A DNA stretch of 64,000 nucleotides. Origin: Candidatus Omnitrophota bacterium. GTDB taxonomy: Bacteria > Omnitrophota > Gorgyraeia > B26-G9. A program made the position numbers and the translations under genes. The notes below the pieces were generated by a model that saw nothing but the letters and a program-made list of their open reading frames with translations, was not told the origin of the DNA and did not search any database. Each line of letters starts with the position of its first letter. Positions within the stretch are counted from its first letter, which is position 1. Of this stretch, positions 1-30,289 are shown in pieces. The stretch is taken from NCBI GenBank assembly GCA_043814605.1, contig JBDRJV010000047.1, positions 5,077 through 69,076 of the forward strand. Direction: 5' to 3'.

Positions 1-350
1 GTGGTGATTCATCAGAAAAAATGATTTCTTTATTAAATAGCAATAAAAATGTGGGGTTATTTCCTGAAGGTGGTTGTAGTTATGATGGAAAACTAAAAGC
101 TTTCAAAAATGGAGCAGCTCTTTTAGCTATGCGGACAGGGAGGCCCATTGTACCCTGCGCAATTGTAGGAACTTATGAATCATTACCCGTAGATGCAAGC
201 TTTCCCAAATTATTCTTACCAATTATAATAAAAATAGGCAAACCAATTTATCTTTTAAAAGAATTTGATGAGATTATTGAAGATATTGATTTACAGGAAG
301 GAATTTTAAAAGTGAGAAATTCAATAAAGGCTATGCTCAATGCAGGATAA
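1..350 (+). CDS. lysophospholipid/1-acyl-glycerol-3-phosphate acyltransferase (PlsC-like), 5'-truncated by window edge
   Basis: Reading frame is open from position 3. The FPEGG (PlsC-type FPEG) acyltransferase motif sits near the N-terminus of the visible part, so the gene starts upstream of the window. Confidence 0.65.
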   Translation, partial: GDSSEKMISLLNSNKNVGLFPEGGCSYDGKLKAFKNGAALLAMRTGRPIVPCAIVGTYESLPVDASFPKLFLPIIIKIGKPIYLLKEFDEIIEDIDLQEGILKVRNSIKAMLNAG

Positions 351-1908
351 AGAGCTGATTCATATAAACATATCTAAAATTATTCACGCCCAAAAATGGA
401 GAGTTATTCGCCTTTTAACTAAAATCCATGAATTCCCCGGTTATATCCCCTGCGTAAAAGAAGCCAGCTTAATTGAAAAATCCCGCCATAAAATGAAAAC
501 TAAATGGCGGATTGAAATAAATAAAATCCCGATTAATTGGATAGAAAACGATAATCTTGATTTAAGAAATAATACAATTGAATTCCAGGCAGAAACAGGA
601 GATTTAGAAGAATTCAGGGGGGAATGGAAATTTCAGGACCATCATCAAGGGACAAAAGTTTCGGTTAATGTTTATGCCAAAGTAGGTATTCCGGCAATAA
701 GAATTAAGGTTGAATCTCACATCGAAAAAATTCTCACGGAAAATTTTACCGCAATATTAAGGGCTATTGATAACCGGCTTGTTTCTACGCGTTATGCACG
801 GTTTAAAAAAGGGGAAACACAGAGTGTTGCCGGCTTTGGTATTGTGGGCCATCTTTATAATTTTTATCATTTGGAACAGTATATTAAAGTGCTTGATCCG
901 GATGTAAAAATGCCTTCTATGGAATTTTTAAGCCGTATTTTCCGGATTACGCCTTCTTTTAAACTTTTTGATATCCCGGAATTTAAATCTGTAACTGGTC
1001 ATATAGTTAACGGTTGTTTTATTATGTCCACATTTATTCCGGAGATGATGGAAAAAGATGTTTGGGGCGTATTTTCTAAGGTGGTTAAATCCTGCCGTAT
1101 TGCAGAAAAGCAGGGTGTGGGGATTGTGAGTTTAGCCGGGTTTTCCTCGATTGTTGAGGAAAAAATCGGTCAGGCAATCAGCACAGAAGTAGATGTGCCG
1201 GTAACTACAGGTAACACTTATACAGTAGCGATGATTAAGGAGAGTATTTTTAAAGCTGTACAATTTTTAGATTTAGATTTAAGTAAAGCTAATTTAACAA
1301 TTATCGGCGCTGCGGGAAATATTGGCAGCGGATGCGCCAGGATCTTTGCGGATAAAGTAAAAGAACTTATTTTGACTGGCAGAGCCAAAGATTCTCTAAA
1401 AGATTTACAGCAGAGAATTTTTAAAAAATATAAAAAAAGTGTTTCCATTTCTCATAATAGTGAATTATCCGTTCGCGATGCGGATATTGTAATTTGTGCG
1501 GCTAATACGATCACTTCGTTTGTAAAAATGGAATGGTTTAAACCCGGCGCTATTGTTTGTGATGTGGGGTATCCGAGGAATGTTGAACCGGCTGAGCAAA
1601 CCCGGGAAGATGTTTTTATTTTTAACGGAGGTCTTGCCAAATCTCCCACACCCGTTACTTTTCCTTTTGATATGGGATTGCCGGCAAAAGAAGTATTGTA
1701 CGGATGTTTTGCCGAGGCAATAATCTTAGCGCTTGAGAAGCGTTATGAAAACTTTAGCACGCGTGCCGGATACATAATCCCAGAAAAAGTTGAGGAGATC
1801 AGGGTTTTAGGCGAAAAACATGGATTTAGCGTAGCTGATTTTTACTGGTGTAATAAAAAAATTGATGATCAGGCGATTTTGAAAGTTAAACACGTAATTA
1901 TTTCTTAA
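340..1908 (+). CDS. SRPBCC (START/polyketide-cyclase-like) domain fused to long-chain acyl-ACP reductase (AAR) homolog
   Basis: C-terminal ~350 aa align block-by-block with cyanobacterial AAR as I recall it: GIVGHL..LEQ, TGHIVNGCFIxSTFIPEM, TTGNTYT, IIGAAGNIGSGCARIF (Rossmann), LILTGR, VCDVGYPRNV, YGCFAEAIILALE. The N-terminal ~150 aa look like an SRPBCC lipid-binding fold. The start overlaps the upstream gene. Confidence 0.7.
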   Translation: MQDKELIHINISKIIHAQKWRVIRLLTKIHEFPGYIPCVKEASLIEKSRHKMKTKWRIEINKIPINWIENDNLDLRNNTIEFQAETGDLEEFRGEWKFQDHHQGTKVSVNVYAKVGIPAIRIKVESHIEKILTENFTAILRAIDNRLVSTRYARFKKGETQSVAGFGIVGHLYNFYHLEQYIKVLDPDVKMPSMEFLSRIFRITPSFKLFDIPEFKSVTGHIVNGCFIMSTFIPEMMEKDVWGVFSKVVKSCRIAEKQGVGIVSLAGFSSIVEEKIGQAISTEVDVPVTTGNTYTVAMIKESIFKAVQFLDLDLSKANLTIIGAAGNIGSGCARIFADKVKELILTGRAKDSLKDLQQRIFKKYKKSVSISHNSELSVRDADIVICAANTITSFVKMEWFKPGAIVCDVGYPRNVEPAEQTREDVFIFNGGLAKSPTPVTFPFDMGLPAKEVLYGCFAEAIILALEKRYENFSTRAGYIIPEKVEEIRVLGEKHGFSVADFYWCNKKIDDQAILKVKHVIIS

Positions 1909-4103: not shown

Positions 4104-6233
4104 ATGAGTAATAATTTTTTAAGCATTTATGCGCTTCCTTATTTACTTGTAGCAATTTTATTTTTATTTCTTGGGGTTTTTGTTTTTTTGCATAACAAAA
4201 AATCTCTGACAAATCTTTCTTACCTTTTTGTTTGTATAAGTAGTTTTTTATGGCTTTTAGGTAATTACTTAATTATTTCCAGCACAAATGAGAACAGTGC
4301 ATTTTTTTGGGCTAGATTTGCTTATTTTGGAATAACTTTAATCCCTCCGAGTATGTATTTTTTCTCAACAGCTTGGTTGGATTTATATAAAGAAAAAAAG
4401 AAAATAGTAATTTTAAATTATATTTTGGGGTCATGCTTAATACTACTGTTTTTATTTACAGACTTATTTATAACCGGAGTTTATTATTATTTCTTTGGGT
4501 ATTTTTCTAGATTAAGTAAATTCAGTATAATATATTTAATTTGCTTTTTTTTAATTTCCGGAGCATTTTTCTGGAATTTATTTAAAGGTTATAAGAAAGA
4601 AAAAACTGCAATAAAAAAAATTCAAATCAAAAGCGTTTTAATTGCTTTTGTTATTGCGTTTATTGGTGCTGTAGATTTTTGGGTAACTTTTGGCCTAGAA
4701 ATTTATCCAATTAGTTTTATTACGATGACTTTATTTATTGTCATTGTTGCTCATTCGATTATTTATTACAAATTAATGGATATTGAAACTGTACTGCATA
4801 AAACAGCATTATGGTTATTATCTTTCTCTTTTATTGTGATTCCTGTTTTTCTAATATATCGAGGGATCTATTTTTATTTAGAAAAATCTATCATGCTACA
4901 ATTCATCTTTTGGACTGCTTCTTTCGTAATGTTCTCATTTTACCTAAGAGTTATACAGCCGAAAATTGATCATTTTTTTCAAAGGCGCGAGTATAATTTA
5001 CGAGAAACACTAAATAAATTTGTTGAAGAATTGGTTTATCTAAAAGGACTAGATAACCTTATTTCTCAAATAGAAAATACAATCAGAGATACTTTGTATC
5101 CTCAGACGGTTGATATTTTTATTTATAGCGAATTAGATGAAAGGTATATAGCTTTAAATAACAATACTCAAAAAAATAATAGAGAATTAATAGATGAAGA
5201 TAACAATTTTTTAACTTGGTTAAGAAAGAATAATAAAATTGTGTATAAAGAGTTTATAGATATGGATCCACAATTTGTATGGATTAAAGAAGATGCTAAA
5301 AATTATTTTAATTATAACAGTGCTGTTGTAGTAATCCCCTTGATATTAAATAATAATTTATTAGGAATTATTAATTTAGGGAAAAAACAAAATTTAATGC
5401 GCTATAAATCAGCTGATTTTGATTTCTTGAACGTGTTAAGAAATGAATCAGTTATTGCAATATCTAATTCACTTCTTTATGAATATACGGAAGAGCAGGT
5501 TAAACAGCGTTCTGAAGAATTAATTAAAGTACAAAAGCAATTGGTACAGGCAGAAAAATTGGCAACTGTAGGTACACTAGCTGGAGGAGTAGCACATGAA
5601 ATTAATAATCCTCTTGCAGCAATACTCACTAATGTGCAGCTATTATTGGATTCAGATGATATAAAAAATAAAGATGATAAAGAATCTCTGGAATTAATTG
5701 AAGAAGCAACTAAGCGCTGCCGCGAAATTGTAAAAAAACTTATGGTGTATGCACGTAAGCCATTAGCCCGAGAAGAAATAAGCAAAGTAGATTTAAATGA
5801 AGTTATTGGTAATGTATTATCTTTTATTAAATATCAGCTAGGGCAGGAAGATATTAAAATAGTTACTAATCTCCAAAAAAATAATTATTTTGTTACAGGG
5901 AATAAAAATGAACTTGAACATGTAATTACTAATATTGTTTTAAACGCAAAAGATGCGATTAAAAAAATAAAAAAAAGTGGTATTATAGAAATATCTTTAA
6001 CTAAAAGTGAAGAATTTATAAAAATTCAGATAAAAGACGAAGGTGTGGGAATGTCCAGCGAAGTCAGGCCAAAAATATTTGACCCGTTTTTTACCACTAA
6101 AGATGTAGGTAAGGGCTTAGGGCTTGGCCTTTCTATTTGCCAGGCAATTATCGAAAGACATAATGGCAAAATAGAGGTTGAGTCAGAAATAAACAAAGGG
6201 GCTGTTTTTACGGTTCAACTGCCGATTGCATAA
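4104..6233 (+). CDS. sensor histidine kinase, multi-TM N-terminal sensor + HisKA + HATPase_c
   Basis: About 8 hydrophobic helices at the N-terminus. H-box HEINNPLAAIL. G-boxes DEGVGM and GKGLGLGLSIC. Starts 4 nt after the AOS stop. Confidence 0.85.
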   Translation: MSNNFLSIYALPYLLVAILFLFLGVFVFLHNKKSLTNLSYLFVCISSFLWLLGNYLIISSTNENSAFFWARFAYFGITLIPPSMYFFSTAWLDLYKEKKKIVILNYILGSCLILLFLFTDLFITGVYYYFFGYFSRLSKFSIIYLICFFLISGAFFWNLFKGYKKEKTAIKKIQIKSVLIAFVIAFIGAVDFWVTFGLEIYPISFITMTLFIVIVAHSIIYYKLMDIETVLHKTALWLLSFSFIVIPVFLIYRGIYFYLEKSIMLQFIFWTASFVMFSFYLRVIQPKIDHFFQRREYNLRETLNKFVEELVYLKGLDNLISQIENTIRDTLYPQTVDIFIYSELDERYIALNNNTQKNNRELIDEDNNFLTWLRKNNKIVYKEFIDMDPQFVWIKEDAKNYFNYNSAVVVIPLILNNNLLGIINLGKKQNLMRYKSADFDFLNVLRNESVIAISNSLLYEYTEEQVKQRSEELIKVQKQLVQAEKLATVGTLAGGVAHEINNPLAAILTNVQLLLDSDDIKNKDDKESLELIEEATKRCREIVKKLMVYARKPLAREEISKVDLNEVIGNVLSFIKYQLGQEDIKIVTNLQKNNYFVTGNKNELEHVITNIVLNAKDAIKKIKKSGIIEISLTKSEEFIKIQIKDEGVGMSSEVRPKIFDPFFTTKDVGKGLGLGLSICQAIIERHNGKIEVESEINKGAVFTVQLPIA

Positions 6234-6345
6234 ATAAAAGTTATCAAGTTAGAAGATTAATGGTTTAATCTTCGCAATCTATTGTTAATCGTTGTAATTA
6301 GGTATAATCTGGTTTATAACGCAAGATTATACCAGGAGGTTAGTT

Positions 6346-6726
6346 ATGGCAAAAAATATTTTAATTATTGATGATGAGGCATTAGTAACCAAATCTTTAC
6401 GCAAACTACTTGAGAAAAAGGGTTATAATGTAACTATTGCCCAAAGCGGCAAGGAAGCATTAAAACTTGTGCAGGAGAAAGAATTTAATTTGATAATTTC
6501 TGATGTCCGGATGCCGGAACTTGACGGGGTGGAAACAATAAAAGCAATCCGTGATTATGTTAAAGAACAGGGTAAAAAACCCATAAAGGAAATTCTGATA
6601 ACCGGATATGCAGATGAGCAAAAGTATAAAGACGCCGTTGACTTAAAAGTTGCACATTATATTTACAAACCGTTTGATACAGAGGAGCTGGTTGAGGCAG
6701 TCGAAGACAATATTGGTTCTGCTTAA
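6346..6726 (+). CDS. response regulator, receiver domain only
   Basis: CheY-like fold motifs IIDDE, phospho-Asp context ISDVRMPELDG, and conserved K in YKPF. No output domain. Confidence 0.85.
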   Translation: MAKNILIIDDEALVTKSLRKLLEKKGYNVTIAQSGKEALKLVQEKEFNLIISDVRMPELDGVETIKAIRDYVKEQGKKPIKEILITGYADEQKYKDAVDLKVAHYIYKPFDTEELVEAVEDNIGSA

Positions 6727-6770
6727 GCACAGTAGCTACTCTCTACTTAAAAAAAGAAGGAGCAGAAGAA

Positions 6771-8012
6771 GTGCGCGACAATAGAAACGCCGTAATCACC
6801 GGAGTGGGAGTAATTGCTCCTAATGGGATTGGCAAGGAAAAATATTGGAAAGCGTTGGAAAATGGAGTTAGCGGGATAAGACCAGCTACGCTTTTTGATA
6901 CCACTTATTTTAAAAGTAAACTGGTGGGAGAGTGTACGGATTTTGACCCGGTGGAATTTTTAGGCCCTAAAGGCCACCGTACTCTGGATCGCGCTACCAA
7001 AATGATTGCTTCCGCGGCAAAGCTGGCGCTTGATGACGCCAAGCTTGAAATCACAGAAGAAAATACTGATGATATTGGTGTGGTAACAGCCACAACGTTA
7101 TCGGTTGCTTTTGATATTGCAGAGTTTACCAAAGAAGTTGTACAGGACGGGCCAAATATGGCTAACCCGGCTTTGTTTCCGCCCACAACCATGAATTTCC
7201 CCTCAAGTCACATTGCGATCCGTTATAAGATAAAAGGGTTTAACACAACTATTTCCACAGGATTTTCCGCTGGCCTGGATGCTTTGAAATACGCGATTGA
7301 TTTTATCAAGCTTGGCCGGGCCAAGGTGGTTTTAGTTAGCGGGGTAGAAAGCGCGTCATTTTCTAATTTTGTCGGGTTTTATAAAGCGGGTTTTTTAGCT
7401 GGACGTAAAGGTGAAGAAATATCCTGCCCGTTTGATAAAAGGCATAACGGGATTATTTTAGGTGAAGGCTCAACTGTGATTGTTGTTGAAGATGAAGAGC
7501 ACGCCAAGCAAAGAAAAGCTAATATTTATGCAAAGGTTCTGGCAGTAAAAACATTTTTTGATGCTTTTCGCATTACTGAATACGACCCAAAAGCCCGCGG
7601 CTTAAGGCAAAGCATGCGTAAAGCTTTGGATGAATCCAATACTAGCGAAGCAGAGATTGATTTTATCTGTTCCTGCGCAAATTCCGTTCCCATGCAGGAT
7701 GTTATTGAAACTCAGGCCATAAAAGAAGTGTTTAATATTTACGCTGATAATCTAGCGGTAAGCGGGATAAAATCGATGCTGGGTGAAAGCTGCAGCGCTG
7801 CCGGAGGATTGCAAATAGCCGCGGCAATCGGCGCGATGCAGAACAAATTTATTCCGCCAACTATAAATTATAAAGAGCCGGATCCGGAATGTAATCTTGA
7901 TTATGTAGCCAACAAATCCCGCAAGCAGGATGTGAACAATGTCATGATCAATAATTTCGGGCCGGGAGGAAATAATACAACCGCGATAATCACGAAGTAT
8001 CGTGATTATTAG
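6771..8012 (+). CDS. beta-ketoacyl synthase-like protein lacking the Cys-His-His catalytic triad (chain-length-factor-like)
   Basis: Thiolase/KS fold aligned to the downstream KS. Active-site Cys replaced by Phe (ISTGFSAGL vs NACAAGN), His1 by Cys (CSCANSV vs CAHGTGT), His2 by Glu (SMLGESCS vs SMLGHTMG). GTG start with GAAGGAGC RBS. Confidence 0.8.
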   Translation: MRDNRNAVITGVGVIAPNGIGKEKYWKALENGVSGIRPATLFDTTYFKSKLVGECTDFDPVEFLGPKGHRTLDRATKMIASAAKLALDDAKLEITEENTDDIGVVTATTLSVAFDIAEFTKEVVQDGPNMANPALFPPTTMNFPSSHIAIRYKIKGFNTTISTGFSAGLDALKYAIDFIKLGRAKVVLVSGVESASFSNFVGFYKAGFLAGRKGEEISCPFDKRHNGIILGEGSTVIVVEDEEHAKQRKANIYAKVLAVKTFFDAFRITEYDPKARGLRQSMRKALDESNTSEAEIDFICSCANSVPMQDVIETQAIKEVFNIYADNLAVSGIKSMLGESCSAAGGLQIAAAIGAMQNKFIPPTINYKEPDPECNLDYVANKSRKQDVNNVMINNFGPGGNNTTAIITKYRDY

Positions 8013-8606
8013 CAAATAAAAAAAGCTTTTATAAGGAAACCATGAACTTTAAAATACGTTCATGGTGACAGGAAGGCAAGAAGCCAGATCCGCCAAGCAT
8101 GTTCTTCGAAGTTTACAGTGGCGAGATTTAATCCGCCAAGTGCATTCAAAGAAGAGAACAGTGGCAAGGTTGGAAGTAAATAATAGGACACAGATTTTCG
8201 CAGATTAACAGGATTAATAAAAAAGGATTATGATAATCTAGTTATCTATTTGTAATAGATAACACTAATTCTGAAGAATTGATAAAAAACAAAAAATAAT
8301 TTTTGTTTTGTTAACGATCTCTCAGAATTATATTCCGCAAAATGCGGAACTAGATTAATATTATAGAACTAAGTTAATATCATTAAACCACAATAAACAT
8401 TGTTGTTTGATTGCGTAATAACAGTTTAAATCTGAGTAAAGCAGTGTTTATCTGTGGGCTATGAAGGTGTTGTATTTTTCCTGTGCAACCTGAGTCAGGC
8501 ATAGGAGATTTCCTGGGCTCCTTAGAGGAAAGATAAAATAATCATAATAAATAGTAATGCTTCATATTTAACTTGAAACATTAAATATGCAGGGTATAAT
8601 AAGATC

Positions 8607-9833
8607 ATGATAAAGCCGCGAATATTAGCTAATGTGCTTAAAAGAGCAATCAAAAGTTTCCCGGCGGTTGTTGTTACCGGGCCTCGGCAATCCGGAAAAA
8701 CAACTTTATTGAAAACATTGTATTCAAAAACACATCGTTATGTTTCTTTGGAAGATCCGGATGTGAGAATGCGGGCAAAAGAGGACCCGGTGAGTTTTTT
8801 AGCGCAAAATAATGCGCCGGTAATTATTGATGAAATACAATATATTCCGGAGCTGCTTTCATATATAAAAACAAAAATTGATCAAAAAAGAAAACCCGGA
8901 CAATGGTTGTTTACGGGGTCTCAGAATTTTGTTTTAATGCAGGGAGTGAGCCAGTCTCTGGCGGGAAGAGCTGCGGTTGTTTCTCTTTTACCATTTTCTT
9001 ATGCGGAGCGGATAAACCAGGCGGGCAAAGCGCAGGATATTAATAACTGGGTGAAGATGCTGAATGTTGAGCAAATTTGTTCAAAAAAAGAATCTTTGAG
9101 TGAACTTATTTTAAGGGGGAATTATCCGGAGATTGCCAGTAAAAAAACAGTTGACCGGCAATTGTGGTGCGGTTCGTATATCTCTACTTACTTAGAAAGA
9201 GATGTGAGAAATTTGTCGGCCATTGGGGATTTAAGCCAGTTTGAAAGATTCTTAAAACTATGCGCGACAAGAACCGGACAAATTTTAAATCTTTCCGAAA
9301 TGGCAAAAGAAATCGGGGTGAGTGTTCCTACGGCAAAAAGGTGGATTTCAATCCTCGAAACAGGATATCAAATATATTTGCTGTATCCATATTATAAAAA
9401 CATCGGTAAACGTTTAATAAAAAGCCCAAAGCTGTATTTTTGTGATACCGCTTTGGCAGCATATTTGTTGGGAATCAATGATCGTGAAGTGATCTTAAAT
9501 AGCCCAAATTTTGGAAATATTTTTGAAACTATGATTATAAATGATTTTGTTAAACGTTTTTTGCATTTTGGGCAGATGCCTTCAATGTATTACTTGCGCA
9601 GCCGGGATGGATTAGAAATAGATTTGGTGATAGAGGTTAATCAGCAATTGCATTTATTTGAAATAAAGAGCGCGATGAATATTACTCAAAAACATGCAAG
9701 CGCGTTGATAAGACTAAAAGCAGATAAAAAATTAGCAATTAAAACTGCGGCGATAATTTCCCGGTCCAAAGATAATTATTTGCTCAGTAAAGGAGTGGTA
9801 AATTATAATTGGAAGAATATTCTTTCTTTTTGA
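8607..9833 (+). CDS. AAA+ ATPase with C-terminal DUF4143 / PD-(D/E)xK-like domain (COG1373 family)
   Basis: Walker A GPRQSGKTT and Walker B VIIDEIQ. C-terminal D..EID..EIK motif. Paralog of the ORFs at 12498 and 25186. Confidence 0.8.
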   Translation: MIKPRILANVLKRAIKSFPAVVVTGPRQSGKTTLLKTLYSKTHRYVSLEDPDVRMRAKEDPVSFLAQNNAPVIIDEIQYIPELLSYIKTKIDQKRKPGQWLFTGSQNFVLMQGVSQSLAGRAAVVSLLPFSYAERINQAGKAQDINNWVKMLNVEQICSKKESLSELILRGNYPEIASKKTVDRQLWCGSYISTYLERDVRNLSAIGDLSQFERFLKLCATRTGQILNLSEMAKEIGVSVPTAKRWISILETGYQIYLLYPYYKNIGKRLIKSPKLYFCDTALAAYLLGINDREVILNSPNFGNIFETMIINDFVKRFLHFGQMPSMYYLRSRDGLEIDLVIEVNQQLHLFEIKSAMNITQKHASALIRLKADKKLAIKTAAIISRSKDNYLLSKGVVNYNWKNILSF

Positions 9834-9890
9834 GATCTTTCGCAATAATCACGAAATACCTGGATAAGTAGCGAGTAGCTAGTAGAGAGA

Positions 9891-10256
9891 GTGGAAAAGC
9901 AGAAGATAAAAAATGTAGAAGATTTTCTTGTTTATCAAAAATCAACAAAATTATTTGATGATTTTTTGGAAAAAGATTTACCGGTTTTAAAAGCAGATTT
10001 TGCTGGGAGTACATTAGCCAGAAACCAGTTAAGATGTTTAGATTCTATTTGCGCTAATATGGAAGAAGGCTATGAACGCAAGCATGGGAAAGAGATCAAG
10101 AATTTTTTTAGAATGTCCAAAGGCTCAGCTGGCGAAGCAAGAGGAAGATATAAACGGTTGAAGAGAGTATTACCGGAAAAAGTTATAGAAATTAGAGTAG
10201 CAGCTTTAAATGAGATTAGAGCCATGCTTGAATCTTTGACTAAGAAATGGGAATAG
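9891..10256 (+). CDS. four-helix-bundle protein (23S rRNA intervening-sequence protein family, TIGR02436-like)
   Basis: About 120 aa with the EG..R...G S.GEA.G pattern (NMEEGYERKHG...SKGSAGEARG) typical of this family. GTG start. Confidence 0.55.
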   Translation: MEKQKIKNVEDFLVYQKSTKLFDDFLEKDLPVLKADFAGSTLARNQLRCLDSICANMEEGYERKHGKEIKNFFRMSKGSAGEARGRYKRLKRVLPEKVIEIRVAALNEIRAMLESLTKKWE

Positions 10257-10352
10257 TTTTCTCTATTGCTTTTTAGTTTTAACAAAATATGAATTATGTA
10301 GTTTTGAAATAGATTGTAGAGATAAGTATGTTATAGAGAATTTTTGGTTTTT

Positions 10353-10420
10353 TCTCTCTACTAGTTGAAAACATTAATATATTTTCAGTGAAATCCCGCT
10401 AAGGCGGGGCTACTCGCTAC
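10353..10420 (+). repeat. REP-like dispersed palindromic element, copy 1
   Basis: ctctctact-agttgaaaacattaatatattttcag-tgaaatcccgctaaggcggggctactcgctac. Contains the CCCGC-TAAG-GCGGG hairpin. Confidence 0.8.
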
Positions 10421-10602
10421 TATTTACTTAAAAAAATAAGTTTAATTATTTTGTAATGAATAAAATATGAATGGTGAGTTTTGCAAGTGAACTGTATATA
10501 TAAGCGTATTTTAGAGGAATTGAGTATTTTTCTCTCTACTTGCTACTCGCTTGTGCCCGTAAGGGTACTACTCTCTACTTAAAAAAAGAAGGAGCTAAAA
10601 AC

Positions 10603-11820
10603 GTGCGCAACAACAGAAGAGTCGTAGTTACAGGAATTGGGATTGTTTCGGCATTAGGCATTGGCCGGGATAAGTTTTGGGATAATATTAAAAAAGGTAA
10701 GTCAGGGATATCTAAGATTACCTCAATAGATACATCTGCTTATAAATGCCATTATGGCGGAGAAGTAAAAGATTTTAATCCTGAAGATTTTATCCCGAAA
10801 AGAAGAATAAAGTTTTTAGGCAAAACATCACAGTTGGCAATTGCCGCGGCTTATTTAGCTTTACAAGATTCCGGTATTCCTTTAAAGCGAATCCCCAAAG
10901 AATCAATGGGTGTGATCATGGGAACAACTATTGGGGAGAAAGCTATAGAAGAGTTAGCTGCACAATGGGCCAAAGGCGGATTAAAAGAAATAGACAGAAA
11001 AAAACTTTTCCAGGCTGCTGCCAATAATATTCCGGCTAATGTAGCTATACAGTTTAAAGCCATGGGATTAAATTGTTTAATCCCCAATGCCTGTGCTGCG
11101 GGTAATTATGCAATTGGTTATGGATATGATTTAATAAGGAATAAAGATTTAAATTTTGCTTTAGTCGGTGGAAGTGAATCGTTTTCACCTTTAGCCTATG
11201 CCGGGTTTCAAAGGCTTTATGCTATGTCTCCGGATAAATGCAGTCCTTTTGATAAAAATAGAAAAGGCATGATGCTGGGAGAAGGTTCTGGAATATTATT
11301 TTTAGAATCTTTAGAATCAGCTTTAAAACGCAAAGTAAAGATTTACGCGGAAATTTTAGGTTACGGCTTATCCTGCGATGCTTATCATGCTACAGCGCCT
11401 GACCCCAAAGGCATTGCTCGAGTTATGCAAAAGGCGTTAGATCAAGCGAATATTAGTTATAAAGAGGTTGATTATGTTTGCGCGCACGGTACAGGTACTC
11501 CGGCTAATGATAAAGCCGAAAGCGCGGCAGTCAAGGAAGTTTTCAAAGAGAGGCATAAAGAAGTATTAGTTAGTTCAATAAAATCAATGCTCGGGCATAC
11601 AATGGGTGCGTCTTCAGCGATTGCAGGAGCAGCTTGTTGCTTAGGGATAAAAGAAGGAATTGTGCCGCCGACCATAAACTTTGAAACTCCGGATCCGGAA
11701 TGTGATATAGACTGCGTGCCGAATAAAGCGCGTAAAAAAGATCTGAATGTTGTTTTAAATAACGGCTTTGCTTTTGGCGGAAATAATTGCTGCGTGGCGT
11801 TTGGGAAATATAGCGGATAG
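10603..11820 (+). CDS. beta-ketoacyl-ACP synthase (FabF/KAS II-like), catalytic triad intact
   Basis: NACAAGNYAIG (Cys), CAHGTGT (His), SMLGHTMG (His). GTG start at 10603 with the same upstream leader (tactctctacttaaaaaaagaaggagc) as the 6771 gene. The ORF track extends to an upstream TTG at 10540, which I do not favour. Confidence 0.85.
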   Translation: MRNNRRVVVTGIGIVSALGIGRDKFWDNIKKGKSGISKITSIDTSAYKCHYGGEVKDFNPEDFIPKRRIKFLGKTSQLAIAAAYLALQDSGIPLKRIPKESMGVIMGTTIGEKAIEELAAQWAKGGLKEIDRKKLFQAAANNIPANVAIQFKAMGLNCLIPNACAAGNYAIGYGYDLIRNKDLNFALVGGSESFSPLAYAGFQRLYAMSPDKCSPFDKNRKGMMLGEGSGILFLESLESALKRKVKIYAEILGYGLSCDAYHATAPDPKGIARVMQKALDQANISYKEVDYVCAHGTGTPANDKAESAAVKEVFKERHKEVLVSSIKSMLGHTMGASSAIAGAACCLGIKEGIVPPTINFETPDPECDIDCVPNKARKKDLNVVLNNGFAFGGNNCCVAFGKYSG

Positions 11821-12121
11821 AAAAAAGTTACAAATTATAAATTATGAGTTACGAGTGAAAAGCTGAATTCTGAAAGCTGATGGCTGATAGCTAGTAATTT
11901 ATTTAACTGGTAAAGGGTACACAGGACAACCGGGTTAATGAAGGAAATATTTATACCTGCTAAAATTTATGTCAGGGGAACAATAACTCTGCTAAAATTT
12001 TAATAACTTGATAAAAAACAGTAAATGATTTATACAAAACAGGGTTGACAGTACTGATTTGTATAAGATTGAATATTTTAGAATTTATTTAAAAATATGG
12101 AGATAGAATCAGTATAGGCAG

Positions 12122-12230
12122 TTTTATACATCCGCGGCCTAAAACCGCGCCCATTTATGGCGCGGATAAAAGGAGGCCGCTTGAGTATTCCACCTCAGGA
12201 ACCACGGGCTTTAGCCCGTGGGGGTTCCAT
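12122..12230 (+). repeat. ~110-bp GC-rich structured element, copy A
   Basis: Nested stems GCGGCC/GGCCGC and CCGCGCC/GGCGCGG, plus hairpin GGAACCACGGGC-TTTA-GCCCGTGGGGGTTCC. Sharply GC-rich against the AT-rich background. Confidence 0.7.
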
Positions 12231-12497
12231 TAAAAAGCAATAACATTAATATCTGCAGTTAGTTGCATTATTAAAAAAGATAATTTTTCAAAAACAAAAA
12301 ATGACAAATTTAAAGTGATACTTTAAAATTATCAATAATTTATACAAATTAGTATTGACAGTACTGATTTGTATAAGTTTGGATGCGTAATAAGGATAAT
12401 AATATATTGTAAGGAAAAACATGACTTGACAGCAATATATTATGCCTGCTATAATTTATATAAAATTAATAATAACCCTGCTAAAATTTAGAAAAAA

Positions 12498-13745
12498 ATG
12501 TATATACATAGAGATCTCGAAAAAAAAATTATTAAATACTTAGATAGTCCGGAAATTTTGGCGATCATTGGCCCTCGGCAGAGCGGGAAGACTACGCTAA
12601 TTAAAAATGTTCTAAAAACTCTTAAAAACGCTGTATACATAGATTTTGAAGACAGAGAAGTTCTGGAATTATTTAATAGTGATATAAAGTCTTTTTATAA
12701 GTTATATGTTAAAGATTCTAAATATTTATTTGTTGACGAATTTCAATACGCGAAAGAAGGCGGCAAAAAGTTAAAGTATTTATATGATACTTTTAAACTA
12801 AAAATTATTATTTCCGGCTCTTCCAGCCTTGATCTTACAAAGCAGGCGATAAAATATTTAGTGGGGAGAGTTTTTGTTTTTTACCTTTATCCTTTTAGTT
12901 TCAAGGAATATCTGGATTTTCGCGATAAGTCATGTTATGAGAATATTTATTTAGATATCCATGAAACTGTCAAAGAATATTTTTTATACAAGAAAAAATC
13001 TATTCCGCTTATTTCTCCAGAAATGATAAAAAAAATTAATAAATATTATCATGAATATGCGATTTTTGGCGGATACCCCCGTGTAGTTCTGGCTAAAGGT
13101 ATTGAAGAAAAAATAACCGTTCTGAAAAATATTTACAACACTTACTTTTTAAGAGAAATAAGGGATATCCTACAGCTGAGTACAGAAGTGGAATTACAAA
13201 AGCTGATCAAATGCCTAGCGCTTCAGACAGGCAGTATAGTCTCATATAAAGAATTAAGCCAAACAACAAGTTTAAATTATAATAACCTGTTAAAACATTT
13301 AAATATCCTTGAGAATACTTTTGTGATAAAAAAACTTCTGCCGTTTTTTCGTAATAAAAGAACAGAAATCGCCAAAGCTCCGAAAATTTATTTTGTGGAT
13401 AATGGTTTGAGAAATATGTCGGTAGGTAATTTTCAGGACATGGGAGAACGAGTTGATAGAGGCAGTATTAATGAGAATTTTATTGCCGGAGAATTATTAA
13501 AGCAGGAATTTGCCATAAATTACTGGAGAACAAAATCTAACGCGGAAGTTGATTTTATCTTGGAAAAACAGGGCAAACACAGCGCGATTGAAGTAAAATC
13601 CAGATTGTCTTCGGATAAAATCGGTAGAGCATTAATCGCTTTTAAAGAAAAATATCCTGATTTTAGAATAACTATTGTTTCTGAAAATTATTATAGTTTT
13701 AATAAAAAAGAGCAGGTTTTTTTTCTGCCGTTATTTTTTGTTTAA
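12498..13745 (+). CDS. AAA+ ATPase with C-terminal DUF4143 / PD-(D/E)xK-like domain (COG1373 family)
   Basis: GPRQSGKTT, FVDEFQ, C-terminal EVDFIL...AIEVKS. Confidence 0.8.
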   Translation: MYIHRDLEKKIIKYLDSPEILAIIGPRQSGKTTLIKNVLKTLKNAVYIDFEDREVLELFNSDIKSFYKLYVKDSKYLFVDEFQYAKEGGKKLKYLYDTFKLKIIISGSSSLDLTKQAIKYLVGRVFVFYLYPFSFKEYLDFRDKSCYENIYLDIHETVKEYFLYKKKSIPLISPEMIKKINKYYHEYAIFGGYPRVVLAKGIEEKITVLKNIYNTYFLREIRDILQLSTEVELQKLIKCLALQTGSIVSYKELSQTTSLNYNNLLKHLNILENTFVIKKLLPFFRNKRTEIAKAPKIYFVDNGLRNMSVGNFQDMGERVDRGSINENFIAGELLKQEFAINYWRTKSNAEVDFILEKQGKHSAIEVKSRLSSDKIGRALIAFKEKYPDFRITIVSENYYSFNKKEQVFFLPLFFV

Positions 13746-13876
13746 AAAAGAAATAATTGCTGTGTCGCGTTTGGGAAATATAAATAATGTTGTGTAATGT
13801 TTAATGTGTTATGTGTAATGAATTTTTTATGCATCAAGCTCCAGGCTGCAAGCTTCAGGGGTTTTAGCTTGCGACT

Positions 13877-13934
13877 TGTTGAGAACATTAATATATTTTT
13901 AGCGAAATCCCGCTAAGGCGGGGCTACTCGCTAC
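13877..13934 (+). repeat. REP-like element, copy 2 (preceded by the gcatcaagctccaggctgcaagc module from 13831)
   Basis: Near-identical to copy 1. Confidence 0.8.
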
Positions 13935-13950
13935 TTTTAAAAGAGGCTTC

Positions 13951-15033
13951 ATGAACAAAAAACGGACAATATTTTTAACCGGTGCGACGGGATTAATCGC
14001 TTCCTATTTATTGAAATTACTTTTAGAAAACGGCAATAAAGTTTATGCTCTAGCTAGAGGTAAAAAAGATCAGTCTGCTAAAGATCGAGTAATTGACATG
14101 TTGAAATTCTGGCAGGCGGATATCTCGCCGGATTTATTTAAAAATTTAACTGTTGTTGAAGGAGATATTACTTATTCAGATTTAGTTAAGCTGGATGCAA
14201 AAGATATTTTAAATAAGCTTTATAATGAAATTGAAATAATTTTTCACAGCGCAGCATTAGCAGAATTAAAAGTTTTGTATGAAAAGATAAAAAAGATAAA
14301 TGTTGACGGCACCAGAAATGTTCTGGATTTTGCCCTAAAATGCAAAAAATTAAAAAAAGTAAATCATATCAGTACAGCATATGTTGTAGGAGATAAAAAC
14401 GGCATAGAATTTAGCGAAGATATGCTTGACGTCGGCCAGGGATTTCATAATACATACGAGCAAACTAAGTTTGAAGCAGAAGTTTTATGTCATGAATATA
14501 TAGATAACAAAGGATTAAATATCTCTATTTTTCGTCCAAGCATGGTAATGGGTGATTCAATAGAAGGAAAAACCAATAATTTTAGATTATTTTATGAGCC
14601 GCTGCATTTCTTTTCTAAAGAAATTTACGAAGCTTTCCCGGTAAATCCTAATTATACGCAAAACTTGATTAATAATGATGTTGTGGGAAAAGCGATTTTT
14701 GCATTAGGAGAAATAGAAAATATTGCAGTATATCATATTGTTTCTCCAAATCATATTACAATGCAGTTTTTTATGCAGACTGCAGCAGAACATTTTGGAT
14801 ACAAATTGCCAAAGCTTATCCCTATTGAAAAGTTTAATTTTAATCAATGGACAGCATCACAAAAACTTTTAGCAGAACCATTTATCCCATATTTTAATTT
14901 TAATACAAAATTTTTGTCTAAAAAAACAGGTGAAATTTTTAATAAAGTTAAACTTAAACTTCCAGAAATAAAAAAAGAGAGTTTAATTAAAATATTTAAT
15001 TTTTGCAATAAGGCTGATTTTATAAAAAATTAA
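13951..15033 (+). CDS. NAD(P)-binding thioester/fatty-acyl reductase-like protein (NAD_binding_4 / extended SDR)
   Basis: LTGATGLIASYL Rossmann motif and YEQTK (YxxxK). Architecture resembles terminal reductase domains and fatty acyl-CoA reductases. Could alternatively be a sugar epimerase. Confidence 0.6.
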   Translation: MNKKRTIFLTGATGLIASYLLKLLLENGNKVYALARGKKDQSAKDRVIDMLKFWQADISPDLFKNLTVVEGDITYSDLVKLDAKDILNKLYNEIEIIFHSAALAELKVLYEKIKKINVDGTRNVLDFALKCKKLKKVNHISTAYVVGDKNGIEFSEDMLDVGQGFHNTYEQTKFEAEVLCHEYIDNKGLNISIFRPSMVMGDSIEGKTNNFRLFYEPLHFFSKEIYEAFPVNPNYTQNLINNDVVGKAIFALGEIENIAVYHIVSPNHITMQFFMQTAAEHFGYKLPKLIPIEKFNFNQWTASQKLLAEPFIPYFNFNTKFLSKKTGEIFNKVKLKLPEIKKESLIKIFNFCNKADFIKN

Positions 15034-15047
15034 CAAAAGGCGAGAAA

Positions 15048-15647
15048 ATGGATATTTTAAAAATTATAAAGGAAAGAAAGAGTATTAGAAAATATCAGGA
15101 TAAGCCTATTCCAAAAGAAATAATTAATAAAATAATTGAAGCAGGTATTTGGGGGCCGTCTGTCCCAAGTTTTTTAAAAATCCAACCGTTTAAATTTGTT
15201 GTTGTAACTAAAAAAGAAATAATCGCAAAAATTTCTTCGCTATTAGAAAAGAAATCGTTAAAAGTTTCTGTAGCAGCTAAAATTTTACTGAAAGGAGCAA
15301 GCAATATTATTAATGCTGTTCCGGTGGTAGTTTTTGTTTACAAAACAAAAGATCTAGAGAATTCGCAGCATAAGTTTAAAGAGGTATATTTAAGTCTTAA
15401 AAAAGTGGTTAAAACTGCTCAAATATCTGCAATTTCAGCAGCAATCCAAAATATGATTTTAACTGCTGAAAAATTAGGGGTAGGGTCTTGCTGGTTAGAT
15501 ATCCCCTTGTTTTGCGAACAAAACATTAACAAGGTGCTAAATAACAATAATAAATTAATTGCTGTATTAACTCTTGGTTATCCTGCAGAAAAAGGGAAAC
15601 GATCACCAAGGAAACCATATGAGGAAGCAGTGGAATTTATAACATGA
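15048..15647 (+). CDS. nitroreductase-family flavoprotein
   Basis: N-terminal RKSIRKY motif typical of the nitroreductase family, about 200 aa. Confidence 0.7.
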   Translation: MDILKIIKERKSIRKYQDKPIPKEIINKIIEAGIWGPSVPSFLKIQPFKFVVVTKKEIIAKISSLLEKKSLKVSVAAKILLKGASNIINAVPVVVFVYKTKDLENSQHKFKEVYLSLKKVVKTAQISAISAAIQNMILTAEKLGVGSCWLDIPLFCEQNINKVLNNNNKLIAVLTLGYPAEKGKRSPRKPYEEAVEFIT

Positions 15648-17110
15648 ATAATAAATATGATGACATAATAATCGGAGCTGGTATTGGGGGATTAGTTTGT
15701 GGATGTTACTTAGCGAAACAAGGAAGAAAAGTTTTGATTGTTGAACAACATTTCCAAGCAGGTGGGTATTGTAGTTCATTTAAAAGAAAAGGTTTTACTT
15801 TTGATACTTCAATTCATTCAATAGGAAGTTTAAGAGAAGGAGGTAAAGTAAGAAAAATATTTAATGAACTTGGACTAGAAGATGAAATAGAATTAACCAG
15901 GTCAGACCCTACCGATATTTTAATTTTTCCGGGTCATACGATTTTTATAAGAAACAAGTTAAATGATACTATAGCTAGTTTTCAGGAATCATTTCCACAT
16001 GAATTTGAAAAAATTAAAGACTTTTTTTATTTTATTTACAATTTTGATTTTATAAAAAACTATTCAAATTTAAAAACTAAAACATTCAAAGATGTTTTAA
16101 ATATTTATTTTCAAGATGAAAAATTGAAATCTATAATCAGTATTATATTAGGCAATATTGGATTGCCTGCGAGCAGAGTCGCTGCATTACCAGCCATTGT
16201 TCTTTATAAAGAATTTATTTTGGATGGGGGGTATTATCCTAAAGGAGGCATGCAATCATTTTCAAATGGTTTAGCAAGAAAATTTAAAAAATTAGGAGGA
16301 GAATTAAGATTAAAAAATAAAGTTGAAAAAATAATTATAAAAAAAAATAAAGCGGTAGGAATAATTATTGGTAAAGAAGAAAAAATATTTTCTGATAATG
16401 TTATTTCGAATTGTGATGCTACGCATACTTTTTTAGATCTTATAGGGAAAAAATTTTTGTCTGATAAGTTTGTTAAAAAAATTGATAATCTTGAAACTTC
16501 AGCATCTGCTTTTGTTGTATATTTAGGTTTAAATAAGAGTTATAATTCAATTTTAAAAAACAGATGTAGTTGGTGGTGTTATTTAAGTGATAAATATGAT
16601 GTGGAAAAGGTATTTTCAGATATTAAAAGAAAAAATAAACCATATTCTGATAATTTTGTGTTTTGTATATTTACATCCTCACATGATAGATCTCTCGCTC
16701 CTGAAAGAGGAGAGACAATCTCTTTAGTTAGTCTAGCGACAGTTAAGGATCTAGATTTTTGGAAAAAAAATAAGGAAAAATTTGCAGATGATTTAATTAA
16801 AAGAGCAGAAAAATTTATTCCAGAGCTATCAAAACATATTATTGTAAAAGAAATAGCAACTCCACATACTATGCAGCGATATACTCTTAATAAAGATGGG
16901 GCTGCTTATGGATGGGCTTCTACTGTAACTCAAATTGATAAAGAAATTATGCCTAGAGAAACAAACATAAAAAATTTATACTTAACTGGACATTGGACTA
17001 CTCAGGGAAGTGGCCAGGGAGGGGTTTCAACTGTAGCTTATTCTGGTAGAAGTATAGCTAAATTACTGATTAGAAGAAAAAATTTTTATGAGAAAAAAGG
17101 GATTAAATAA
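15644..17110 (+). CDS. FAD-dependent oxidoreductase, phytoene-desaturase/amine-oxidase (CrtI-like) family
   Basis: Dinucleotide-binding IIGAGIGGL...VEQHFQAGGYC near the N-terminus, about 488 aa. The stop overlaps the start of the downstream kinase (ATGA). Confidence 0.75.
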   Translation: MNNKYDDIIIGAGIGGLVCGCYLAKQGRKVLIVEQHFQAGGYCSSFKRKGFTFDTSIHSIGSLREGGKVRKIFNELGLEDEIELTRSDPTDILIFPGHTIFIRNKLNDTIASFQESFPHEFEKIKDFFYFIYNFDFIKNYSNLKTKTFKDVLNIYFQDEKLKSIISIILGNIGLPASRVAALPAIVLYKEFILDGGYYPKGGMQSFSNGLARKFKKLGGELRLKNKVEKIIIKKNKAVGIIIGKEEKIFSDNVISNCDATHTFLDLIGKKFLSDKFVKKIDNLETSASAFVVYLGLNKSYNSILKNRCSWWCYLSDKYDVEKVFSDIKRKNKPYSDNFVFCIFTSSHDRSLAPERGETISLVSLATVKDLDFWKKNKEKFADDLIKRAEKFIPELSKHIIVKEIATPHTMQRYTLNKDGAAYGWASTVTQIDKEIMPRETNIKNLYLTGHWTTQGSGQGGVSTVAYSGRSIAKLLIRRKNFYEKKGIK

Positions 17111-19367: not shown

Positions 19368-20213
19368 ATGGCAAGACCATTAAGAATAGAATATGACGGA
19401 GCAGTATATCACGTAACATCGCGAGGTAATGCGAAAGAACCTATCTTTAAGAATGCTGAAGATAGGTTTAATTTTTTTGAAGTACTAGCAGAAGCAAAGA
19501 AAAAGCATAATATTATATGTCATGCGTATTGTTTAATGGATAATCATTATCATTTAGTTGTGGAAACTCCTGAGGGAAATTTGAGTAGGGCAATGAGGCA
19601 TATAAATGGAGTTTATACGCAAAGTTTTAACCGCAAGCATAAAAGAGTAGGTCATGTGTTTCAAGGTAGATATAAAGCGATGTTGGTAGATAGGGATGAA
19701 TATCTATTGGAAGTAATTAGATATGTGGTTTTAAATCCCGTACGAGCTGGATTAGTTAAAAGTGCGGAAAAATGGCAATGGAGTAGTTATTGTGGAACTG
19801 TGGGGATGAGCAAAAAAGAGAGATTTCTGGATACAGATTGGGTGTTGGAATATTTTGGAGGCACAAAAAATATTGCTCAAAAAAAATACCGAGAATATGT
19901 AGATGAGGGAATTGAAAAAGAAATAGTAAAGAAAAAGATTAGTCAGCAGAGTATTCTTGGCAGTGAAAGTTTTAAGCAAAAAATCTCTAAGTATGTGCAA
20001 GGGAAAAAAGAAATAAAAGAAATTTCAAGGTGCCAACGTTATGTGGGACGTCCTCAATTAGAAGATATTTTTAAGGGAGCGCAAAAAGTCAAAGCAGAAA
20101 GAAATGCTTTAATTAGAAAAGCAATAACAGATTACGGGTATCAGCAAAAAGAGATAGCGCAGTGGTTGGGGATGCATTATACCAGCGTAAGTAAAATACT
20201 AAGCAGGGAATAA
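19368..20213 (+). CDS. IS200-like Y1 (HUH) transposase, REP-associated (RAYT)-like, with C-terminal DnaA_C-like HTH
   Basis: HUH motif HYHLVVET. Catalytic-Tyr region GRYKAM. The C-terminal ~80 aa resemble the DnaA C-terminal DNA-binding domain. Paralog at 43640. Confidence 0.7.
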   Translation: MARPLRIEYDGAVYHVTSRGNAKEPIFKNAEDRFNFFEVLAEAKKKHNIICHAYCLMDNHYHLVVETPEGNLSRAMRHINGVYTQSFNRKHKRVGHVFQGRYKAMLVDRDEYLLEVIRYVVLNPVRAGLVKSAEKWQWSSYCGTVGMSKKERFLDTDWVLEYFGGTKNIAQKKYREYVDEGIEKEIVKKKISQQSILGSESFKQKISKYVQGKKEIKEISRCQRYVGRPQLEDIFKGAQKVKAERNALIRKAITDYGYQQKEIAQWLGMHYTSVSKILSRE

Positions 20214-20274
20214 AAAGCTAAAATTCACCGCAAATGCGGGACAGGCAAGACCTGAATCCATGCCTTAGGAAATG

Positions 20275-20376
20275 GAACTCCCACGGGCTAAACATGGTTC
20301 CTGGGGTGGAATACTCAAGCGGCATCCTTTTATCCGCGCCATAAATGGGCGCGGTTTTAGGCCGCGGATGTATAAA
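20275..20376 (-). repeat. ~110-bp GC-rich structured element, copy B (inverted; 60 nt downstream of the transposase stop)
   Basis: Reverse complement matches copy A at ~93% identity. Confidence 0.7.
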
Positions 20377-20421
20377 ATGCTAAAATTCAAGACCTGACCC
20401 CATTACGCTTTATTCGCAGAA

Positions 20422-26334: not shown

Positions 26335-26422
26335 AAACAAAAGAGAAACAAATAATTCAAATAATAATATTGATTTAACGCGGGCAATTCATGAATTGCC
26401 CCTTATATGCGGAGGAATGTGC

Positions 26423-30069: not shown

Positions 30070-30092
30070 ATATCTCCATTTTATGTTTAAAT

Positions 30093-30237: not shown

Positions 30238-30289
30238 AGTATTTGTGTTTACCAGAAGATATCAGTGTTCATCTGTGTTATCTAAGGTT

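Follow-up and report, generated by a model that had tools for sequence, protein, structure and literature searches.

A ketosynthase gene and its catalytically dead paralogue in an Omnitrophota genome probably encode a heterodimer of the anammox amxFabF type

A stretch of 64,000 nucleotides (nt) from the 76,723-bp contig JBDRJV010000047.1 of a Candidatus Omnitrophota metagenome-assembled genome (MAG; contig positions 5,077 to 69,076; termed the window herein) carries two full-length open reading frames (ORFs) with a ketosynthase (KS) fold on its plus strand, and we put the probability that they encode the two subunits of a KS heterodimer of the amxFabF type at about 0.8, on the strength of their orthology to a complex characterized from anammox bacteria. 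We demonstrate here this orthology, the loss of the catalytic triad from one of the two proteins (the dead partner), the conservation and co-occurrence of the pair, and the insertions that have split its genes in this genome. The two genes, of 413 and 405 amino acids (aa), both start with GTG; for the second, the program-made ORF list begins the ORF at an upstream TTG.

6771..8012, plus strand: putative amxFabFmut-type dead KS-fold partner; Phe165 (codon 7263-7265), Cys302 (7674-7676), and Glu339 (7785-7787), with Lys334 kept and tunnel residues Phe136/Thr139 conserved (Pfam, alignments, 9s5h_C, AlphaFold2 [AF2] model)
10603..11820, plus strand: putative amxFabF2-type active ketosynthase; Cys164 (codon 11092-11094), His295 (11485-11487), Lys327, His332 (11596-11598), and gate Phe391 (11773-11775) (Pfam, 9s5h_B, alignments)

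Pfam detects the N- and C-terminal ketoacyl-synt domains in both proteins (NCBI MFH1460747.1 for the 6771 protein and MFH1460750.1 for the 10603 protein), which align end to end with 36% identity. In pairwise and multiple alignments alike, the 6771 protein has Phe165 at the position of the catalytic Cys, Cys302 at the first catalytic His (His1), and Glu339 at the second (His2), and the 10603 protein has the intact triad Cys164/His295/His332; the conserved Lys is retained by both (K334 and K327, respectively). A preliminary description of this DNA had named the same replacements and the same intact triad, and a check for catalytic Cys or His residues hidden in the 6771 protein by misalignment restored none, all alignments being concordant.

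The closest characterized system is the amxFabF2/amxFabFmut heterodimer of Brocadia fulgida, which belongs to the anammox "Cluster I" and has been crystallized (bioRxiv 10.64898/2026.05.19.726425, a preprint of May 2026). According to this preprint, the gene of the dead subunit in the anammox pairs lies just upstream of that of the active one; the dead subunit has lost Cys-His-His, with Asn, Glu, or Cys at the His positions, and the active subunit is intact. The preprint further reports that the two subunits co-purify, that neither is active when produced without the other, and that together they decarboxylate malonyl-acyl carrier protein (malonyl-ACP) and form acetoacetyl-ACP. Residues from amxFabFmut's helix-loop-helix motif line the acyl tunnel and shift the chain-length preference, and the motif is disordered outside the heterodimer.

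Among solved structures, the best match of the 6771 protein was chain C of PDB entries 9S5H/9S5I (E = 2e-104, 352.7 bits; runner-up, 255 bits), and the 10603 protein matched their chain B best (E = 2.2e-139, 468 bits), followed by the ishigamide KS Iga11 (345 bits) and then by FabFs (∼318 bits); the best matches 9s5h_C and 9s5h_B were reciprocal for the window pair. The PDB codes are absent from the main text of the preprint, and we infer that 9S5H/9S5I are its B. fulgida heterodimer because, after an offset, chain B has Cys165, His298, His335, and Phe394 and chain C has Phe135, Thr138, and Val139 as numbered there, because the triad positions of chain C are Val/Asn/Glu, and because 9S5I also holds an 80-aa ACP chain. 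The B. fulgida tunnel positions F135/T138/V139 are F, T, and T in the window dead partner, and the window KS has the gate Phe (394 in B. fulgida), plus A164, F203, and M337. Conserved among these are the dead partner's tunnel Phe/Thr and, on the side of the active KS, the gate Phe, F203, and M337. As to the charge complementarity of the helix-loop-helix motifs that disfavors homodimers in the amxFabF type, a simple net-charge count over the mapped segments, which has little power without a surface calculation, gave no clear asymmetry even for the B. fulgida chains. The heterodimer logic of the preliminary description is supported, both proteins being orthologous to the subunits of a heterodimer that was crystallized and shown to co-purify, and its suggestion that the dead subunit may serve only as a structural partner is supported by the conserved tunnel Phe/Thr of the helix-loop-helix.

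The AF2 model of the dead partner, computed as a single chain, has a FabF fold (mean predicted local distance difference test [pLDDT] score, 83.9; predicted template-modeling [pTM] score, 0.88) and superimposes on Bacillus subtilis FabF (4LS5/4LS8) with a template-modeling (TM) score of 0.92; in the fold library used, a PDB set without 9S5H, only FabFs matched. B. subtilis FabF is also the closest fold given for amxFabFmut in the preprint. Model confidence was low at residues ∼111-140, the helix-loop-helix motif, which is consistent with a motif that stays disordered unless the heterodimer forms.

A neighbor-joining tree (403 columns, 200 bootstraps) was calculated from the window pair, its counterparts in eight related loci, the two chains of the B. 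fulgida heterodimer, Iga11, FabF of B. subtilis, and a third Nitrospirota KS, with one FabF and one polyketide synthase (PKS) KS as the only outgroups. All dead partners, amxFabFmut included, formed one clade (100%), and all active partners, amxFabF2 included, formed another (100%), with Iga11 as its sister (82%). The phylogeny called for in the preliminary description, here run with FabF and Iga11, thus groups the window pair with the anammox pair at 100%. By these clades, the pair-forming duplication is ancient: it took place before anammox bacteria, Omnitrophota, and Nitrospirota came to share the pair, be it through the split of the three groups or through transfer among them.

The dead partner is itself a widespread protein, with at least 120 cluster representatives at 59 to 75% identity, mostly named Omnitrophota/Omnitrophica. 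In 120 of these homologues (≥59% identity), Tyr (91) or Phe (28) stands at the Cys position, apart from a single His; Ala, Ser, or Cys replaces His1 in all except two; the His2 position carries Glu in 118 and Asp in 2; and the Lys is invariant. A genome scan found further dead partners in MAGs of Thermodesulfovibrionia/Nitrospirota (55 to 60% identity), and in a profile search 49 single-domain representatives (50% clustering) were nearest to the dead-partner references. Across relatives, the identity to the window proteins is 55 to 65% for the dead partner and 58 to 66% for the active one, and conservation of the dead partner to the same degree as the active one argues against decay. That the 6771 gene is a functionless paralogue on its way to becoming a pseudogene might be suspected from the loss of all three catalytic residues and from a mobile cassette inserted in its last codons (see below). 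The reading frame is, however, full length, the insertion has left the C terminus complete, the family-specific replacement residues are conserved in 120 homologues from several phyla, and the gene evolves as slowly as that of its active partner, so that decay is the least credible of the explanations weighed here.

In all 11 loci read (Omnitrophota and Nitrospirota), the dead gene lies upstream of the intact KS gene. The gap between them is 29 to 86 nt in the related loci L003, L010, and L011; one small ORF lies in between in L001, and the ACP and dehydratase genes lie in between in the Nitrospirota loci. This strict adjacency speaks against two independent proteins, namely a 10603 protein that is an ordinary homodimeric FabF for bulk fatty acids and a 6771 protein that forms a separate homodimer with another role, e.g., in a non-Claisen reaction or in substrate binding, as Rattray and co-workers first proposed for amxFabFmut. 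Independence could be argued from the amxFabFmut of S. brodae, which crystallized as a homodimer when expressed alone (bioRxiv 10.64898/2026.05.19.726425), from the Lys, Glu, and Tyr/Phe conserved in the dead pocket, which would allow other chemistry in principle, and from the 10603 protein passing NCBI's broader KAS-II subfamily model (412.9 bits; cutoff, 387). The FabF equivalog model (NCBIfam TIGR03150; cutoff, 493.75 bits) is nevertheless reached by neither protein (6771 protein, 340.9 bits; 10603 protein, 428.1 bits), and the 10603 protein falls in the amxFabF2/Iga11 clade, apart from B. subtilis FabF; we consider independent function improbable. Canonical FabF (KAS II; B. subtilis 4LS5 and Escherichia coli 1KAS) shares the fold with the window proteins and the catalytic residues with the active partner, but it forms a symmetric homodimer and so has two active sites.

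Two further observations concern other KS arrangements. The Nitrospirota loci L005 to L009 encode a third, divergent KS of ∼430 aa with an intact Cys-His-His (e.g., L007 13144-14457), which directly follows the active partner, precedes a CrtI-family gene, and forms a 100% clade of its own. The profile search also returned many didomain proteins of ∼800 aa (P0122 to P0271) in which an intact KS is fused to a triad-less KS in the manner of a KS and a chain-length factor (CLF); the intact domain was nearest to amxFabF2 in 39 of 52, and the dead domain was highly variable. We rejected these fusions as "Rosetta-stone" evidence for the pair, the dead domains being 23 to 35% identical to the window partner and their orthology unclear; they support the general logic of a KS with a dead KS and not the window pair.

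A KS with a dead paralogue also recalls the KS-alpha/KS-beta (CLF) pairs of type II PKSs, to which the preliminary description had likened the window genes. The logic is indeed shared, as both window proteins are orthologues of a crystallized, co-purifying heterodimer, but the likeness does not extend to a classical type II PKS KS/CLF. The actinorhodin KS-alpha/KS-beta (PDB 1TQY) is likewise an obligate heterodimer, its acyl/polyketide tunnel being shaped by a dead KS paralogue; in its CLF, however, Gln takes the place of the Cys and priming is by decarboxylation, whereas this position is Phe165 in the window partner and Tyr or Phe in 119 of the 120 homologues. Nor is the actinorhodin CLF close to the 6771 protein, which scored 144.5 bits against it (1tqy_B), 251 bits against FabF, and 352.7 bits against 9s5h_C. 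Closer on the active side is the highly reducing type II PKS of ishigamide (Iga11/Iga12; PDB 6KXD-F), which, like the system described here, has an active and a dead KS in a heterodimer and, in its cluster, an ACP, a ketoreductase (KR), and a dehydratase but no enoyl reductase, and whose Iga11 is both the sister of the active-KS clade and the second-best structure match; the identity is far below that to amxFabF2, and the product and tailoring genes are different. An alternative identity of the window pair as a classical KS-alpha/CLF or as the ApeO/ApeC pair of aryl-polyene pathways, with an aromatic polyketide or an aryl-polyene pigment as the product, would fit the shared logic of active and dead KS, the Iga11 sister position (82%), the L001 dehydratase, which also matches ApeI/ApeP-like Pfam models, and a cluster encoding no enoyl reductase. 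Against this stand the Phe/Tyr in place of the Gln of decarboxylating CLFs, the bit scores just given, the absence of cyclase, aromatase, aryl-starter, and ammonia-lyase genes, and the lipid-assembly neighbors (PlsC-type, LpxL-type, monogalactosyldiacylglycerol [MGDG]-synthase-type, and thioester reductase), and we regard such an identity as very unlikely.

The likeness to anammox Cluster I (KustE3605/3606; B. fulgida) is the closest, each window subunit being orthologous to its anammox counterpart (100% bootstrap clades), with the dead gene upstream, His2 replaced by Glu, Lys kept, and the dead-subunit tunnel Phe/Thr and the active-subunit gate Phe conserved. Proteins resembling amxACP and amxFabZ are encoded beside the pair in some relatives, and a CrtI-family oxidoreductase, alike at the family level, is a neighbor in the window and in several relatives. 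The differences are the Omnitrophota host, which is not known for ladderanes; His1, which is Cys/Ala/Ser here and Asn in anammox bacteria; additional thioester reductase, nitroreductase-family, acyl-ACP-reductase-fusion, and PlsC-type genes; and, in the window, the split of the pair by 2.6 kb of mobile cassettes. Of the six genes of Cluster I (amxACP, amxFabZ, amxFabF2, amxFabFmut, a phytoene-dehydrogenase homologue, and a B12-radical-SAM gene), only the two KS genes and a gene of the CrtI family are present in the window.

By analogy with the characterized orthologue, from which heterodimer formation, the division of labor, and tunnel shaping are carried over here, the 10603 protein, with its intact Cys-His-His and gate Phe, would carry out malonyl-ACP decarboxylation and Claisen condensation. 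The 6771 protein would be unable to form an acyl-enzyme because an aromatic residue occupies the Cys position; it would pair with the active subunit, and its helix-loop-helix motif would line the acyl tunnel at the dimer interface. The pair would be part of a specialized lipid module that resembles a type II fatty acid synthase (FAS-II), is conserved in both Omnitrophota and Nitrospirota, and recurs in anammox Cluster I. Besides the pair, the module would consist of a dedicated ACP and a KR, a CrtI-family oxidoreductase, and in many cases a dehydratase of the FabZ type; in Omnitrophota, a thioester reductase, a member of the nitroreductase family, the acyl-ACP-reductase fusion, and an acyltransferase of the PlsC type would be added. 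Two unrelated DUF4143-ATPase cassettes and a four-helix-bundle element of the intervening sequence (IVS) type have split the operon in this genome, with the reading frames unharmed.

Several points weigh against an amxFabF-type heterodimer in a Cluster I-like module. The evidence for an interaction between these two particular proteins is indirect, and the anammox heterodimer yielded in vitro acetoacetyl-ACP only, without demonstrated elongation (bioRxiv 10.64898/2026.05.19.726425). The Cys position is Phe/Tyr here and Val/Thr in anammox bacteria, and the behavior of the dead pocket may differ accordingly. With 2.6 kb and independently promoted genes now between the two KS genes, their balanced co-expression cannot be taken for granted. 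Neither the scanned ORFs of the window nor the stretches of relatives that were read contained a radical-SAM domain or gene; as anammox Cluster I includes a B12-radical-SAM gene, the pathway would differ from the anammox one. Finally, tblastn and family hidden Markov models (HMMs) found no ACP gene in any frame of the 64-kb window, nor a FabZ/FabA-type dehydratase or a FabG-type KR. The preliminary description had seen no ACP gene nearby, which holds within the window and is probably an effect of its left edge: in L003 and L011, which have the same gene order, KR and ACP genes lie immediately upstream of the PlsC-type gene, and the ACP gene is therefore probably located a few hundred bases beyond that edge.

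In the window, the gene order is PlsC-type acyltransferase (cut), reductase fusion, formyltransferase-like, BioF/Spt-like, histidine kinase, response regulator, KS pair, thioester reductase, nitroreductase, and CrtI family. The neighbors of the KS pair are as follows.

21..350, plus strand: PlsC-type acyltransferase, 3' part, cut by the window start (Pfam Acyltransferase; 59 to 65% identity to the PlsC-type genes of L001/L003; synteny)
340..1908, plus strand: fusion of an SRPBCC (polyketide-cyclase-like) and an acyl-ACP-reductase-like part, a conserved cluster member (Pfam Polyketide_cyc and Shikimate_DH; 52 to 53% identity to the L001/L003 orthologues; NCBIfam TIGR04058 AcACP_reductase, E = 2.4e-44, under the curated cutoff)
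4104..6233, plus strand: histidine kinase of the seven-transmembrane (7TM) type (Pfam HisKA_7TM, HisKA, and HATPase_c; synteny)
6346..6726, plus strand: single-domain response regulator (Pfam Response_reg; synteny)
13951..15033, plus strand: thioester-reductase-type NAD_binding_4 protein (Pfam/NCBIfam)
15048..15647, plus strand: nitroreductase-family flavoprotein (Pfam/NCBIfam)
15644..17110, plus strand: CrtI/phytoene-desaturase-family oxidoreductase (Pfam/NCBIfam)

The histidine kinase and response regulator genes adjoin the dead-KS gene upstream, as they do in L003 and L011, and orthologues of the genes at 13951..17110 follow the KS pair in L001, L003, L004, L006, L007, L009, L010, and L011. 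Taken together, the related clusters, in which genes for 7TM histidine kinases and response regulators are interspersed, encode a FabG-type KR, an ACP, and often a dehydratase of the FabZ type; an oxidoreductase of the CrtI family and a protein of the nitroreductase family; either a thioester reductase or a methyltransferase; and a PlsC-type acyltransferase as well as the SRPBCC/acyl-ACP-reductase fusion. The best structure matches of the ACP and dehydratase of relatives are the anammox amxACP and amxFabZ (7QV0, 7AUF, 9S5I_E, and 8AYB). MGDG-synthase-type, LpxL-type, and glycosyltransferase family 2 (GT2) genes directly follow the cluster in L001; in the window they are located about 18 kb away, at 45758-48934, beyond a region with HipA, Rhs-toxin, and IS200 genes.

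The mechanism of the pair is already explained by the characterized anammox orthologue. What is added here is that the KS/dead-KS pair is widespread outside anammox bacteria, in some relatives with anammox-like ACP and dehydratase genes, and that an aromatic residue stands in place of the catalytic Cys in this lineage. "Ladderane-type" clusters in Omnitrophota are already known from antiSMASH surveys, and orthologous pairs being common in Omnitrophota and Nitrospirota should aid the reading of antiSMASH "ladderane" calls in such phyla; it also narrows the set of anammox genes that can be ladderane specific. No ladderane synthesis is known from Omnitrophota or Nitrospirota. We tentatively suggest, with rather less than even confidence, that the core of the supposed ladderane cluster (ACP, FabZ-type dehydratase, KS/dead KS, and CrtI family) is not anammox specific but an old module, widespread in Omnitrophota and Thermodesulfovibrionia, that makes an undescribed class of membrane lipids. 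Because of the thioester reductase, acyl-ACP-reductase fusion, and PlsC-type genes, candidate products are reduced, alcohol- or ether-linked, or unsaturated chains. If so, the module alone can neither explain nor mark ladderane synthesis, and the ladderane-specific step would lie elsewhere, e.g., in radical-SAM enzymes. The cluster context points to an uncharacterized lipid pathway in a poorly known phylum.

The KS genes are separated by an AAA_14/DUF4143 ATPase gene (8607-9833) and a PF05635 "23S rRNA IVS protein" four-helix-bundle gene (9891-10256), and a second ATPase gene follows the active KS. The inserted elements are as follows.

8013..9840, plus strand: inserted cassette 1; ∼600 nt of noncoding DNA, a promoter-like site at 8573-8600 (scan 11/12), and the AAA_14/DUF4143 ATPase gene 8607-9833 (Pfam; absent between the KS genes in relatives)
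9841..9871, plus strand: orphan copy of the dead-KS gene's last 10 codons, AIITKYLDK-stop versus the real end AIITKYRDY-stop (direct repeat 7982-8018 versus 9841-9877, 76%)
9870..10551, plus strand: IVS-type element; PF05635 gene 9891-10256 (Pfam 23S_rRNA_IVP, E = 9.9e-11) and a 21-nt inverted repeat, 9870-9890/10531-10551
11813..13749, plus strand: inserted cassette 2; noncoding DNA, a perfect sigma-70-like promoter at 12426-12455 (scan 12/12), and the AAA_14/DUF4143 ATPase gene 12498-13745 (Pfam)
13750..13787, plus strand: orphan duplicate of the active-KS 3' end, NNCCVAFGKYK-stop versus the real end NNCCVAFGKYSG-stop (direct repeat 11780-11812 versus 13750-13782, 94%)

Being bracketed by 3'-end duplicates of the preceding KS gene, both ATPase cassettes are real insertions, and both KS reading frames stay complete despite them. 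The preliminary description had read the ATPase and four-helix-bundle genes as inserted, and this view is borne out by relatives in which the KS genes are 29 to 86 nt apart or have only ACP and dehydratase genes between them. The ATPases of cassettes 1 and 2 share only 25% identity. A third AAA_14/DUF4143 ATPase cassette was observed at 24923-26395 (gene 25186-26334), the three ATPases being mutually 25 to 30% identical, and each of the three (8013-9877, 11780-13787, and 24923-26395) separates genes that stand side by side in relatives. For two of the three, the last codons of the upstream gene recur as a bracketing direct duplicate of 30 to 33 nt, the orphan copy of which can still be read as a C terminus with a stop codon, and both of these cassettes have a strong promoter-like site of their own; no 3'-end duplication was found around the third cassette ATPase (25186-26334) or around the ATPase of L011. 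There is no recombinase gene within the cassettes, which have the look of mobile cassettes that target the 3' ends of genes and restore these ends on insertion. Cassettes 1 and 3 have in common a noncoding element of ∼80 nt upstream of the ATPase gene (8088-8215 and 24956-25040; ATCCGCCAAGTG..TTCAAAGAAGAGAACAGTGGC), of which cassette 1 also holds a half copy; an Rfam scan of 6000-15000 returned nothing credible, including no match for this element.

The IVS-type element contains a 178-nt tandem duplication (10281-10362/10459-10540), and its predicted RNA has a long-range stem around the ORF (z = −3.0). The PF05635 gene is situated outside any rRNA gene.

The two KS genes are preceded by an identical 27-nt leader, TACTCTCTACTTAAAAAAAGAAGGAGC, which occurs exactly twice in the window, with none expected in shuffles.

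6737..6763 (28 nt from 6736), plus strand: leader copy 1; repeat motif, A-run, and GAAGGAG ribosome-binding site, ending 7 nt before the GTG of the dead-partner gene (exact match, segment identities)
10569..10595, plus strand: leader copy 2, identical, 7 nt before the GTG of the active KS (exact match)

The preliminary description was correct about the identity of the leaders, which it had taken to indicate an ancient tandem duplication; the duplication is ancient by the tree, but the leader is not its witness. The block is sharply bounded, with 28 nt at 100% identity, 20% identity just upstream, and 43% over the last 7 nt; beyond the leader, the two genes are 78% identical over codons 1 to 6 and 53% over codons 7 to 40, the baseline between dead and active KS genes in relatives being 55 to 57%. 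No leader shared between dead and active genes was found in relatives. The block starts inside the motif GCTACTC[GT]CTACT, which has nine occurrences in the window (0.05 expected), also builds the inverted repeat around the four-helix-bundle gene, and precedes the KS gene of L011, and a third leader-like copy (88%) is located at 10416-10440. We therefore rejected the leader as a relic of gene duplication, since it is a sharply bounded 28-nt block, absent from relatives, and a recently copied unit of a dispersed intergenic repeat. One may speculate that the identical ribosome-binding context helps to balance the synthesis of two subunits whose genes are now apart. In L011, a motif of the GCTACTC[GT]CTACT type is found in the 86-nt spacer between the dead and active KS genes, without a PF05635 ORF, and the RNA fold of this spacer was no better than shuffles.

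Outside the lipid cluster, a block of about 17 kb (28637-45543) parts its signaling genes from the MGDG-synthase-type/LpxL-type/GT2 genes. It encodes HipA, a minus-strand histidine kinase/response regulator pair, a tail-fiber-chaperone-domain protein, a second IS200-like gene, and, at 36590-43021, a 2,143-aa SpvB/TcdB/Rhs toxin-like protein. The other IS200-like transposase gene (19368-20213) stands beside a second CrtI-family gene (20422-21438), which is N-terminally truncated (aligned from model position 167) and is followed by a third 7TM histidine kinase gene; this arrangement suggests that the region 19368-21438 is a duplicated, broken copy of the segment of phytoene dehydrogenase and histidine kinase genes. 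A second 27-nt intergenic element, consisting of a hairpin, CCCGCTAAGGCGGGG, and then GCTACTCGCTACT, occurs four times in the window (10395-10421, 13909-13935, 27561-27587, and, on the minus strand, 36413-36439), and the three plus-strand copies precede gene starts by a few tens of bases. In a longer form of 79 nt, this element is common to 10346-10424 and 13860-13938 (87% identity).

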